Made by a program: the position numbers
DNA from: Escherichia coli O157:H7
Lineage (GTDB): Bacteria; Pseudomonadota; Gammaproteobacteria; Enterobacterales; Enterobacteriaceae
Assembly (NCBI RefSeq): GCF_013167455.1
Contig: NZ_CP038328.1
Strand: one strand, 5' to 3'
DNA: 64,000 nucleotides
Part shown: one piece after another, positions 3,001-9,000 of the stretch
Layout of the letters: each line of letters opens with the position of its first letter
Position numbering within the stretch: the stretch's first letter is position 1

Positions 3001-6000
3001 GCCGGGCGTCATTTCTCCGGGCAGAAAGGAAATCTGTTGCATTATTCCGGCCCCTTTCAGTCAATGATGCGCATAATGGCGCTGCCTTCCGGATGCTGCA
3101 GGGCGTAATCCCGCAACCGGTAATAATGGACCGTCATGGCATAATTCTCCGTACGACAGGCATGATGGCTGTACGTCATCAGACAGGCGGCAATACCGGC
3201 GGCTTCCGGGCTCATTTCAGCGCGGTTACCGTTCATGGCATTGAACAGTACCCATGTTTCGTCATCATCATCATCCGGTTCGGGGGCCATAAATGCCCCG
3301 CCGTTGTTCAGGGTGTACAGATTCCAGATACCACCGCAGTAGTCTTCGCACAGACGGTCCATCCAGCCGAAGACACGGGGCTCCAGGGTGACCCACTGTG
3401 GAATGAGGCCAAAATGCTGCGGCCAGAAGCTGATGCGCTGTTCATCAGGGACGAGGCTGGCAACCAACTGAGGCGGATTATTCTCTGGTGTTGTAGCTGA
3501 ATAAATTGTGGGGGTATTCTGAGAAACGGTTTTCATGAGATAACTCCTTAAATAACAAATAAATGTGTGTTTTTCGGGAACGAAAGCTGAATGATTCCCT
3601 CACTCAGGGAAACGGCATCAGCGCAGGCTCTCCAGCATCGTTTCTGCCATCACCCACAATGCGCGATTGAGCTTAATGTCGGTATCAATGCTGTGAATGG
3701 CCCGGGTATGGATACGTTTTCCTTTTGCACTGCGACCGGAAATCCCGCCTTTCAGCATATTCTCCTGGATGGTCTGATATGCGCTCCACAGGTCCTTACC
3801 GTAATCCTCCCGGCGTCGCGGCGTCAGAATGTCGGCGGTGGTGACGGGCTGATGTTCGTCACCATAACGGTAAGTCAGTGCCGCCTGTGCCAGCGCCTGG
3901 CGTGCCGGTTGCGGCAGGACCAGCGACTGCATGGCATCACGCTTCTCCTCTATCCGGTCAAACACGCCCACCACCTCGTAAGCCCCTTCGATAACTTTCT
4001 CCACTACATTTCCCCGGTGTGGAACACGCACTTCCCCCAGAGACTGGCCACAGACGCACCCGTTCTGGCAGACGAACCTGAAGTAACCCGGCAGCATCTG
4101 GTAGCTGGAGGTACCGTCATGAGAGTTGAGCAGAATAATTTCAGGGACATGTTCTCCGTTTATCTCTCCGGCCCGCCGCAGACGCAGCATGTGTTTTGTG
4201 TATCCCCGGCGGCCCGGGTCGCGCACACGGGTCTGGCAGGCGAAGAACGGCTGAAAGCCTTCCCGCTGCAGATTTTCCAGGACGGTAATGGTGGGAATGT
4301 ACGCATACCGTTCACTGCGGGAGGTGTGCCGGTCTTCCCCAAAAATACTGGGTACATGGCGTATCAGTTCTTCATGTGTCAGCGGACGGTCACGGCGTAT
4401 CTGGTTTGCAGCATAACCAAAACGACTGGCTAATCGCATACTTTGCTCCTTATCGGTGGTTAAGATTTACTGGTGCAATAAATGAAAAAAGCCGCGTCTC
4501 CCGGAGAAGACGCGGCCTGACGGGTGAAATGAATAAGGTTTATTGTCTGAGAGGCCTTTCACTGGCGAGCCACGCATTAAGCGGCTTTCCGGTAACAATG
4601 GCTGGGGCTGTATTTACCTTTGATATTAATAATGTGCAGAGAAACGCATGGTTTACTCCTTAGATTTTAAGTTTGTCCTGGGCTACACCGACAGGTTTTC
4701 CGGATGTGTCGATGACTCCTACCGTCGGTACGCCATTTTTGATTTCGAAGAACGGTTTGTTGCTACCTGAGCACAGTTGATTGTCCCCGTATTCAATCAT
4801 TTGTGCTTTCCCGGTTTTCAGGTTAACTACCGAGACAGTGTAGTCGTAGCACCAGGCACCACCACGTTCAAGCACGAAAACATAGCTGTTATCTTTATAG
4901 TTGAACTGATTCTTTGTCTGGCAATTCATACCGTCAATTTCGGTACAGGAAAACGCTTCTGTAGTATTAACGTATTTGATGTTATTTGGCAGTTTTACTT
5001 GTTTCGCAGTAGCGAAGACAGAGAACAGAATAGTTACAGCAACGAGTAAAGTTTTGATAAAAGTTTTCATGATAGACTCCTTAAATTAGTTAACCGCAGC
5101 TACGTAGTTTTTCACCAGATACGCGAATTCATGCACGCCAATTTCACCGAACCAAACCAGGTAGGCCGGGTCATCTAAACCAAAGTAACGGTAGCCAACA
5201 ACTTCATGGGTTTTTGGGTTATAGAGTGTTACGATAAAGTCCCAGCCGCAGGTATTGGCTTTGCAACCGTCGCCCTGGAACCAGACTGTACCGTTAATGT
5301 TTACTGGCGTGATACCTCCACCAGGGCCATCCATATAGCCGCCTTTACCGAACATGCCGCTCAGTCCGACCGGTTTTAATGCTTTGTCGATAGCGGCTTT
5401 GTAGGTAGCGTCACCTTCGTACAACTCGTACGTTGATGGACACGCTCCAGGTTGTTCAGCCCAGGCTTCCGGGTTACAACTAAGAGCTTGTTTTACGGTA
5501 GCCGCTTCTGCGTTAAAGTTAAAGCCCGTGAACAGAACCGCCAGAAATAACATAAGGGTATGTAAACGTTTCATTGTAAATATTCTTCCGTTGTAAATGG
5601 CGCTGGAAAATTTCTCATCAGTGAAACCTTCCGGAAGTTTCCCCCCCTTGTATGATGTATATCGCCAGTATTTTATTTCATCCCGGCTGTAATTTTTATA
5701 TTCCCCGGCACGTGCAATAACGCGGACCAGAGATATAAGGCTCATTAATAACTTTACAGGTAATTTCATAATTAAATTTCCAGTGAGTGAATTGACAGGT
5801 GAGGGGTAAAACTTTCTCTCAGGTAATATATATCTGAAAATATTTTCAATAACACCAGACAGGAAAAACACCACCACAGGCGGTGGCGTTTCTTTGGGGC
5901 GTCTTTATTTAATCCGGGCCATCGCGTTTCTCAGTGCCAAATCTGCCTCTTCCGTTATATCCAGGCTTTTCTGCAATACCGCCTCTGACCGGGTCAGTGC

Positions 6001-9000
6001 CTGACGTGCTGCCAGCGGTTTCCGGATATGCTCCATCGCCAGCATCGTGTCTTCATAGCCCTGCTGACACCAGGCGTCGGTATGTGCCGATGTAAAACTG
6101 AGCAGACCGCCGCTGTTGCCACCATCACCTGCATATTTCAGCCTTTTCCGGGGACGGATCTCAAGGATTGTGGTGTCCGGAAAAGCCTGGCGATCCCATA
6201 AAGAACCGTCACTCAGATGCGTCACAATCACCATATTGCATCCGGCATCGACCAGAGGCGTCACAGGGGTATTTCCCTGCATATTTCGCCATCCTCCCAT
6301 ACCACCATCACCGAACATTGTCCCCTGAACCTCACGGGGACGGAACAGCAGGGGCAGCGCGGCTGACGCAAGCAGAGCCTCTTTCTGCTGTCCGCGGGGC
6401 AGGCTCTGGATATGCTGAAAAACGGCGTTTTTCGTGGTTCCGACACCCAGTTCAGCACGAATGCAGTCAATAATATCCTGCATGCCCCCTTCTGTGGGGT
6501 ACAGCGACACATACAGCGGTAGCCCGTCTGCCAGAGCATCAGTATCAAGATAATGATCCATCAGCGCTGTCAGGGGCTCATCTGACAACAACGGCTGAGC
6601 CATCAGATTGTCAAACCCGTTGATTGTCGATATATGGCGAAGAAGCGTCGTAAGCAGTGCTCCTGCACGTCCGGGGATCTGGCAGAGGTTCATTGCCTGG
6701 AACAATTTTTTCAGCAATGAAAAGTAAACCAATCTGTTTACCGACAGCACCTGATTATTCCCCAGATGATCCCAGAGCGCCTCCAGGCGTACGGCAGCTT
6801 CTGACAGATCGGTAGAGGCCGCGATAATGGCACCATTGAATGCGCCAATGCTGGCCCCTGAAACCATGCTGATCTGTGTACCACACTCTGCCAGTGCCTT
6901 AACCACTCCCGCCTGATAAGCGCCCACCGCCCCGCCACCGGACAGCACCAGCCCCGTTTTCATTTCTGTACTCATGCAGCCCCCTTCTGAAATATTTCAT
7001 CGACCATACTTTCAGAGAGGCGTTCTGCAGAGCAGAGGCGAGGCATGCGAACCGGTAAGTGTTCTGCAGCCTGCGTGGTTGACCAGATCACCGGATGCTG
7101 CTCTTCACTGCACCAGTCTCCCAGCCAGTTAATCGCGTCATGCCACTCGTTATCTGCCTGCTCCCGGCCCTGACCACCAAGCCAGTCCAGAGTGTTCAGA
7201 CGCACGGTTGCACTACCGCCACTCTCCTGTGCCATCTGCGTTAATGCTTTATGTCTGAGAATATCCAGTAGCTGGTTAACCTGGCCTGTTTCGCTCTGAC
7301 GTATCACATCACCAAACGCGCCCCAGCGAAGCTCTTCAAGTGCCACATAACAACGTCCGGCAGGGGAAAATGACGCATATCGCCCGGCGCTCCACCATGA
7401 GAATATCTGCTCAAGATGTAACTGCGCCCGCTGAACCTGGTCAACACGGTGGAGTTTTTCTTCAAGATGATTCAGTTTATGGTGAACCTGATCGGCCAGG
7501 GTGAGTAACTGCTCCCGCGTATCTGCGGAATAATGCGCCAGCCTGGCTGTATCACTGACCAGTGAACTGACCCTGTCGTTTACCCGGGTAATCGCGTAGT
7601 TTGTGGTGGCAAGTGACGTTGTCATCTCCGTCAGCCAGCGCAGGGACGCCTCAACGCCCTGTGCAAGCGACGCATTGATGGCATTCTGCCGTGCAGCGCC
7701 TTCGCCGGTCAGCCCCTCTTTTAAACGCCGGAAGAACGTGCGCTCTCCGGCCGTGCGGATATGCTCCTGTGCAACATCGATTCCGTTTGCGAAATCAACC
7801 ACAAATTTTTCAGGAAGACAGGTGAGTACCTGACATACCCGGTTATCAGCAATTTGTTGAATAAATGGTGAAGTCACAGCATTGTCTCCAGCTCTTCCCT
7901 CAGCGCCTTACTGTCAGTAATGAGCTCAGGAACCCTTTCATTTAATGCCTGAAGTCGCCCGGTAAGCCGTTCCTGCGCCTGCTGATCGCGTTTATGATCT
8001 TCAGAGCTCTGAATCAGCGTGTTACGCAGTTGTTCAACTTTCTCCCTGAATGCGCAGAAAAAGGCATCGATTTCCTGGCGGACGGGCTGGTTAATATCCT
8101 GCTCAATGGATGCCTGCAGCTCCCCGAAATATGCCCGGGTCAGTGACATAACTTCCTCTCTGACCTTGTTGATATTGATCACGCTGCGACTCACATCCTC
8201 GTCATAGTTTTCCCAGCCCAGGTCACTGGTGCCAAACCATCGACAAACGGTTCCCCATACGCCACTCTGCCGACGGCGACGGGTGACGGTCTCCGTTCTT
8301 TCCTCCATAAGCGCACTCAGATTTATTTTTACCGCGAGCCGGGTCTGTAACTGGCTGACTGCCGGAAAACTGATTTTTACGGTAAAGCCCTCATCCTCCA
8401 GGCGGGCATTGATGCGACCGGCAATGTTTTCTGTGGCGTACAGGGCCGTGCCACGAAAACCTGTTTCAATCCCGCTGACGATTTTCTCCAGCTCAGGCCG
8501 GAACTGTGCTTCAGCCTCACGGTGCAGGCTGGTCACGGTCGATTCGATTTGCGTCATCAGTTCAAGGGCTTCCCTGCGATCACTGAATTTTATTTCGGGG
8601 CTGTCCGGGGCAAAATCTCGTTTCCTGTAATCCTCCCGGCCCTGGTTGTTGATACCGGACCATTGAGAAATTTTCCCCCATAATCCGGACTGAGACCTTC
8701 TTCCGCGTCGGGATAAATCAAAAGGTATTATCCATTGATTCAGTATCTGGGTGAGAGTAAATAATCTAAAAATAGTATTGCGTTGTGAACTGATATCACT
8801 TTTGAATTACAAAGGTATAGGTTCAGTAACCAGCTTTATAAGTCATTGTCGTAGCAATGAGTATAGAGTCATGCTGGCGGGAAGAATAAATATTCACCCA
8901 CAGATGGAAAACAACGTCGAAAAACCTTCAACAAACACAATACGTTCGTTAGCCTGCCCGCAAAGCGGGCAGATCAGGACAAAGAATTCCATAACGATTG

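Follow-up and report, generated by a model that had tools for sequence, protein, structure and literature searches.

Evidence that a CP4-44-type island of Escherichia coli O157:H7 carries a decaying copy of a conserved dynamin-RdcB-patatin gene module

We closely examined a locus in a 64,000-nucleotide stretch of DNA from Escherichia coli O157:H7 (contig NZ_CP038328.1; the whole stretch is here called the window), for which an original prediction, made from the sequence alone, had described an uncharacterised three-gene operon ending in a patatin-like phospholipase gene and had put it forward as a candidate defence or toxin system. The overall best explanation, to which we give a probability of roughly 0.6, is that the locus holds, in decaying form, a conserved, mobile module of a GTPase, an adaptor and a lipase, most likely with a role in defence or conflict. 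That the window copy is truncated is almost certain: the first of its three open reading frames (ORFs) is the tail of a gene for a dynamin-like GTPase. The intact gene set, here called the triad, is best described from sequence comparison as a conserved mobile module in which a putative GTPase switch of the RdcA/RdcB type is operonically joined to a putative patatin effector; it has been noticed before and is uncharacterised. The features identified at the window locus are the following.

7874 to 8557, minus strand: ORF of 227 amino acids with an ATG start, lying within the larger remnant at 7874 to 8701
6972 to 7877, minus strand: intact rdcB-like (YjcZ family) gene for 301 amino acids, with a GTG start and a Pfam YjcZ match
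5905 to 6975, minus strand: intact patatin-like phospholipase gene for 356 amino acids, with an ATG start and a Pfam Patatin match
5869 to 5885, minus strand: terminator-like GC-rich hairpin followed by a T-run, at about 20 nt past the patatin stop codon (a pattern match from a consensus scan only)
7874 to 8701, minus strand: 3' remnant (codons 524-798) of a gene for a 798-amino-acid dynamin-like GTPase of the BDLP type, a pseudogene (from tblastn and translation)
8695 to 8714, no strand: deletion or recombination junction that cuts the dynamin gene and fuses it with sequence downstream of an iha-like receptor gene (from DNA alignment)

The three minus-strand ORFs of 227, 301 and 356 amino acids were found exactly as predicted. 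Their 4-bp start/stop overlaps are visible in the sequence, with GTGA at 7874-7877, where the GTG start of the rdcB-like gene overlaps the stop codon of the remnant, and ATGA at 6972-6975, where the ATG of the patatin gene overlaps the stop codon of the rdcB-like gene. The claim of a three-gene operon holds for the 301- and 356-amino-acid genes, which are complete, but not for the 227-amino-acid ORF, which is a remnant of a dynamin gene. Its frame stays open 5' of the ATG at 8557, with no start codon there upon translation, and window positions 8701-7877 are 100% identical in tblastn to residues 524-798 of an intact, 798-amino-acid dynamin family protein of strain 23AR0303, whose gene measures 2397 nt. 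The match begins at residue 524 ('RRSQSGLWGK...') and runs to the end of the protein; upstream of that point, the window is unrelated. DNA alignment with the intact locus likewise showed identity up to window position 8700 followed by divergence, with short imperfect TTCNGCGTC similarity at the junction.

The NCBIfam model CrfC covers the 227-amino-acid ORF at profile positions 530-736 of 742 only. RefSeq annotates the remnant as a pseudogene ('incomplete; missing N-terminus') in CEC01311, 2017C-4109 and O157:H7 EC4115, genomes that are identical to the window across the operon (5700-8900), and homologous E. coli regions are annotated as encoding a dynamin family protein, an RdcB family protein and a patatin. 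The truncation junction is present in 99 of 5426 E. coli genomes, and an uninterrupted dynamin gene in at least 1212. The deletion, which ends at about 8700, took the first 523 codons with the G1 to G4 motifs, the neck and half of the stalk, as well as the native upstream region, and joined the remnant to DNA downstream of the iha-like receptor gene. The rdcB-like protein has the same accession (WP_000203545.1) at intact and truncated loci, and the patatin accession is likewise unchanged.

The intact allele encodes a full-length paralogue of RdcA (YjdA/CrfC) of E. coli K-12 (33% identity, E = 9e-121). Pfam Dynamin_N matches at residues 71-299, and the protein harbors the motifs G1 (GTMKAGKS at 75), G3 (DTPG at 235) and G4 (NKFD at 298), whereas the window ORF, which corresponds to residues 524-798 only, lacks G1 to G4. 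The predicted absence of an NTPase partner is therefore true of the window copy, but only since the GTPase domain has been deleted there. In an AlphaFold (AF2) model of the intact protein (predicted local distance difference test score, pLDDT, 79.6), a G domain is followed by a helical neck and a stalk with an 80-residue helix, a disordered loop at 528-549, and a second stalk half with a beta-rich tip, so that the modelled combination of G domain and helical neck and stalk appears BDLP-like. Foldseek searches with this model returned BDLP (2j69, E = 3e-13), SynDLP (1.6e-12) and IniA (4e-11), and also mitofusins; LeoA (4aur) is among the structural matches. Placed on the model, the remnant takes up where the long helix ends and consists of the disordered loop together with the second stalk half and the beta-rich tip.

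The two upstream proteins had been thought to match no recognisable family, which was not borne out. The 301-amino-acid protein matches Pfam YjcZ (PF13990) with E = 4.7e-70 at residues 26-296, covering model positions 1-272 of 272, and is 30% identical to K-12 RdcB (E = 2e-37); the partners of the patatin are thus an RdcB/YjcZ paralogue and the remnant of an RdcA/CrfC paralogue. RefSeq labels the 301-amino-acid protein 'diguanylate cyclase regulator RdcB family protein', a name that denotes homology only. An RdcA-type GTPase gene lies directly 5' of the YjcZ gene in every locus with enough upstream contig, and at the window locus only the 3' remnant of this gene is left. The YjcZ family is small, with 471 representatives at 50% identity among 1.84 billion proteins. 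A sequence search of the PDB with the RdcB-like protein returned nothing meaningful.

The patatin hallmarks of the 356-amino-acid protein are present as claimed. Pfam Patatin (PF01734) matches at residues 9-239 with E = 8e-24, and the protein carries the glycine-rich oxyanion loop GGGAVG at 13-18, the nucleophile elbow GASIG with Ser42, and a DGG motif at D223, giving a Ser-Asp dyad. Across 35 aligned homologues with 45-91% identity, residues G13-G15, G18, G40, S42, G44 and D223-G225 do not vary. The nearest solved relatives by sequence are PlpD (E = 2.7e-12) and VipD (E = 7e-6). No transmembrane segment, signal peptide or secretion domain was found in the patatin, and no transmembrane segment in any triad protein. 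Scans of the three window proteins with PADLOC, NCBIfam and PHROGs yielded no defence-system model and no phage family, the sole matches bearing on the patatin being weak N-terminal patatin matches. The patatin is the likely effector of a mobile, possibly defensive module.

We further analyzed the occurrence of the triad outside E. coli. The dynamin, YjcZ and patatin genes follow each other in that order, usually overlapping, in all nine non-E. coli contexts examined (Methylomonas, two Pseudomonas, Allochromatium, Pectobacterium, Vibrio parahaemolyticus and three distant metagenomic members). A scan with one genome per species identified 29 of 79 species-level loci as triads, in Gamma- and Betaproteobacteria; at each of them, no more than 63 nt separate the end of the YjcZ alignment from the start of the patatin alignment. 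Their hosts include Pantoea, Erwinia, Pseudomonas, Allochromatium, Thiodictyon, Thiorhodospira and Marinospirillum, and furthermore Macromonas, Aquaspirillum, Gallionella and Comamonadaceae. The remaining 50 loci consist of a GTPase-YjcZ pair without a patatin gene; all named ones are from Enterobacteriaceae, and one is from an unclassified metagenome-assembled genome. In a neighbour-joining tree of YjcZ proteins, triad and pair architectures are parted by a single split, and the patatin gene was therefore gained or lost once. The much broader host range of the triad suggests, short of proof, that it is the K-12-type pair that is derived; RdcA/RdcB of K-12 may stem from a module with the lipase, or the other way round. 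The identities of the three triad proteins to their E. coli counterparts co-vary across 31 loci (r = 0.95-0.97), as expected of a co-inherited unit.

Within E. coli, 2668 of 5426 complete genomes searched, about half, carry the module, with one to six copies per carrying genome and a median of two. Homologues occur on 44 plasmid records, including one IncF plasmid on which insertion sequence (IS) elements flank the triad. Neighbours of the triad comprise an integrase, DUF927 and a WYL regulator in Pseudomonas aestuarii; a BrxR-type WYL regulator, an integrase, RadC and DUF932 in P. fluorescens; and Uma2 and Fic in Allochromatium. One metagenome-assembled genome carries the triad near a PDC-S01 candidate and a PIN/MazE pair. 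In V. parahaemolyticus, the triad lies about 6 kb from a complete, bona fide SIR2-HerA system (15913-19004 of the examined locus; PADLOC E = 3e-274 and 1e-186), and the region looks like a small defence island. Between the Vibrio triad and SIR2-HerA lie umuDC-like genes and a reverse transcriptase gene of the group II intron type, and an Imm49 gene is located upstream of the triad. This neighbourhood pattern, seen at a small number of loci, is typical of accessory conflict genes.

A working model for the triad can be derived from its K-12 paralogues. RdcA and RdcB activate the diguanylate cyclase DgcE in E. coli K-12; RdcA, reported as a soluble, signalling GTPase, dimerises, tightly binds RdcB and contacts the MASE1 domain of DgcE, and activation depends on the nucleotide state, the proposed active state being the nucleotide-free form, which builds up as GTP falls (PMC6510439). 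By analogy, the triad GTPase would bind the RdcB-like adaptor, and the nucleotide or assembly state of this complex would gate the partner enzyme as RdcA/RdcB does with DgcE, the partner here being the patatin. Upon release, the patatin would hydrolyse inner-membrane phospholipids via its Ser42-Asp223 dyad. The trigger during infection might be falling GTP, or a cue from the membrane or from assembly, with abortive infection, altered lysis or an anti-phage action at the membrane as possible outcomes. On this analogy, the GTPase/adaptor pair probably regulates the lipase. Anti-phage defence as the role of the triad is a serious candidate that falls somewhat short of even odds. More tentative is the fuller proposal of a new abortive-infection or anti-phage class, in which the BDLP-type GTPase would sense GTP or membrane state and free the lipase via an orphan-fold adaptor, RdcA/RdcB would be a domesticated, lipase-less derivative, and the window would hold a natural GTPase-deletion allele.

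The operon has come up once before, as one of those most strongly up-regulated in Kapi1 lysogens, in a 2026 study whose authors name it a putative dynamin phage-defence system without testing this (PMC12922286). Our literature search on patatin, dynamin and phage defence found no functional study and no other mention of the operon. The description as an uncharacterised candidate defence system thus holds in that the module is mobile and experimentally uncharacterised, but the idea of a dynamin defence operon was already in print. If the triad is an immune or conflict system, a GTPase-gated lipase would join the known effector-gating mechanisms beside the cyclic-nucleotide-gated CapV. A function would thereby be assigned to a module carried by roughly half of the complete E. 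coli genomes searched and by resistance-type plasmids, and an origin of the K-12 RdcAB-DgcE biofilm switch from such a module would be suggested. The window locus itself is almost certainly a pseudogenised remnant in an O157:H7-type CP4-44 island, not an intact novel three-protein system, and its allele could serve as a natural GTPase-deletion control.

A regulated function of the window copy is unlikely because the G domain and the native upstream region are lost. Lacking GTPase and promoter, this copy is most likely non-functional or reliant on an intact second copy at another genomic site. The copy is decaying and heading toward loss. IS activity is visibly eroding the region, with insertions that, in related strains, have hit the patatin gene and the truncation junction.

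Several points weigh against the decaying defence or conflict module as the explanation. PADLOC 2.0, proposed as a check in the original prediction, has no model for the triad, and no experiment ties the triad to phage resistance or either partner to contact with the lipase. The fold of the RdcB-like protein has no structural relative and hence gives no mechanistic hint, and a search of phage genomes for RdcB-like homologues returned no match. The triad was seen close to defence genes at only a handful of loci. Although the triad is found on plasmids and integrase-bearing islands, some of its contexts are not obviously mobile, such as that in Methylomonas between FecIR/TonB genes. The window copy may also be expressed: its genes lie on the same strand as the iha-like gene upstream, with no terminator-like site found in between, and the remnant operon may be transcribed by read-through from the iha-like gene. 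One weak promoter-like site was found at 8789-8761; three such sites in the new upstream region compare with 3.4 expected, which is chance level. Finally, a near-identical intact triad elsewhere in O157:H7 could complement the truncated CP4-44 copy by supplying the GTPase in trans. This second triad (Gim1-1, 8086-12439 of the examined locus) is intact, with a dynamin of 794 amino acids, and is located in a tRNA-Ser-linked island beside an IS-disrupted Ag43/Cah autotransporter gene and a gene for a YeeP-like GTPase.

Four other explanations were weighed. An unlikely one is that the intact triad is an accessory module for membrane remodelling or repair, with the dynamin tubulating or sealing membranes and the lipase altering the local lipid composition (lysolipids, curvature), as in LeoABC vesiculation or DynA surveillance. 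The modelled structure places the GTPase in the BDLP/SynDLP/IniA/mitofusin class, some loci are not obviously mobile, and bacterial dynamins are tied to vesicle formation and membrane stress (cited in PMC12922286). However, the lack of transmembrane segments in all triad proteins argues against this role, as does K-12 RdcA, which is reported to be soluble and acts as a signalling GTPase (PMC6510439), and the patchy spread, plasmid carriage, multiple copies and frequent pseudogenisation suit accessory conflict genes better.

It is improbable that the triad acts as an addiction system akin to toxin-antitoxin pairs, stabilising islands and plasmids by means of a patatin toxin restrained by the dynamin/RdcB complex. 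Such a role would fit the presence of triads on plasmids and on CP4-type islands rich in toxin-antitoxin genes (cbtA/cbeA) and the intact, invariant catalytic dyad. On the other hand, the 99 genomes with the truncation junction, including a successful O157:H7 lineage, keep an intact patatin gene and tolerate the loss of the GTPase in cis, which mildly disfavours an essential antidote role of the GTPase; the argument is mild, weakened by the second intact copy. In addition, the K-12 paralogues activate, and do not inhibit, their partner enzyme (PMC6510439).

Slightly less probable again is signalling in the manner of RdcAB-DgcE, with the lipase producing a lipid signal or the pair feeding into cyclic di-GMP and biofilm control, and with the window RdcB-like protein working together with the chromosomal RdcA. 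The paralogy to RdcA and RdcB is clear and the RefSeq name points the same way, but identity to the K-12 proteins is only about 30-33%, triads and pairs form separate clades in the YjcZ tree, and the triad loci inspected, from many taxa, contain neither a GGDEF nor a MASE1 gene in linkage. The arrangement of the original prediction, three complete genes in an intact operon with the 227-amino-acid protein as a genuine novel helical partner, is highly improbable, for despite its ATG and its 4-bp overlap with the next gene, this ORF is the in-frame tail of the truncated 798-amino-acid gene, the overlap is inherited from the intact operon, and a GTPase gene of about 800 codons occupies this slot at every triad locus with enough upstream contig.

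As had been predicted, the locus lies in a CP4-type island beside antirestriction, RadC-like and toxin-antitoxin genes, and the three genes are cargo of this island. The context is of the CP4-44 type, with DUF932, antirestriction, yeeS (JAB/RadC-like), yeeT, cbeA, frameshifted cbtA and yeeW, flanked by tmaR on one side and by cob genes on the other. The cbtA toxin gene (at about 1380-1750, inferred from 1979-2352 of a related locus) is annotated as frameshifted in genomes identical across the operon, while the cbeA antitoxin gene is intact; the frameshift is a further sign of decay of the island. On the evidence of its sequence pattern, the hairpin at 5869-5885 likely marks the 3' end of the transcription unit. 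Two hypothetical genes on the minus strand directly past this terminator-like site, at 5086-5769 and 4660-5070, were considered as members of the unit and rejected, given the site between them and the patatin gene and their absence from triads in other genera. Both travel with the triad in E. coli CP4-44 islands, and both products have hydrophobic stretches resembling signal peptides. The 227-amino-acid product of the first has no Pfam or PHROG match, and the 136-amino-acid product of the second matches phrog_8968 (function unassigned; E = 3e-46) and has no Pfam match.

Upstream of the junction, the gene for the iha-like TonB-dependent receptor (9010-12497, minus strand) is split by a copy of the IS3-family element IS1203/IS629 at about 10640-11950, with transposase ORFs at 10710-11923 on the plus strand and an ALIL frameshift pseudoknot at 10991-11107. 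In O157:H7 EC4115, the receptor gene is intact and the IS lies upstream of it. Four identical ALIL pseudoknot matches of 121.5 bits each (10991-11107, 22582-22698, 31426-31542 and 60522-60638) indicate four IS1203-type elements within the 64 kb. Elsewhere in the window, Rfam identified a sok antitoxin RNA of a hok/sok type I toxin-antitoxin system at 53355-53529 (plus strand, 114.9 bits) and the small RNA STnc100 at 57465-57637 (plus strand, 100.8 bits). A cluster of three tRNAs is located at 56445-56691, and more tRNAs at 20024, 23745, 25566, 41262 and 42326.

Among known systems, RdcAB-DgcE is the closest, with the same two-protein core and an output enzyme that is different and unlinked. 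K-12 RdcA-RdcB shares with the triad a dynamin-like GTPase followed by a YjcZ protein, in the same order, with overlapping genes and full-length homology (33% and 30%). In K-12, however, rdcAB (5136-8239 of the examined locus) is followed by proP, whereas the island module has a third, tightly linked patatin gene, and the window copy further differs from RdcA in its truncated GTPase. The clade of RdcAB pairs is confined to Enterobacteriaceae, while the triad clade spans Gamma- and Betaproteobacteria and mobile elements.

Eleos (formerly 'Dynamins'), consisting of LeoA and LeoBC, is an anti-phage system. What Eleos and Bacillus subtilis DynA share with the triad is the use of a bacterial dynamin-like GTPase with a fold of the BDLP class, in a mobile or defence context. 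Eleos lacks the RdcB-like adaptor and the lipase, and the triad lacks a LeoA-type partner. PADLOC matched the intact dynamin only with LeoBC, weakly (E = 8.6e-5) and over the P-loop only (residues 29-89), with no LeoA match, and the 227- and 301-amino-acid proteins gave no PADLOC match; we therefore rejected membership of Eleos.

With CapV of the cyclic-oligonucleotide-based antiphage signalling system (CBASS), the triad has in common that the presumed membrane-degrading effector is a patatin-like phospholipase of the cytoplasm, encoded in a mobile module of several genes. No gene for a cGAS/DncV-like nucleotidyltransferase (CD-NTase) cyclase was found in the neighbourhood within the window or in any triad locus inspected. 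The NCBIfam model CBASS_lipase scored 19.5 bits against a cut-off of 200, covering the N-terminal glycine loop only, and PADLOC matches to phospholipase effectors were weak (E = 4e-5, residues 9-73). CBASS membership was therefore rejected, in agreement with the original prediction. What the triad has in common with Eleos/LeoABC is limited to the GTPase fold class, and with CBASS-CapV to the effector class. The GTPase- or cofactor-activated patatin toxins VipD of Legionella and PlpD and ExoU of Pseudomonas are virulence effectors secreted to attack host membranes, whereas the triad patatin lacks a signal peptide and has its GTPase partner in the same operon. Precedents for patatins gated by a ligand or a GTPase are VipD, switched on by the GTPase Rab5, and CapV, switched on by cyclic GMP-AMP (cGAMP).

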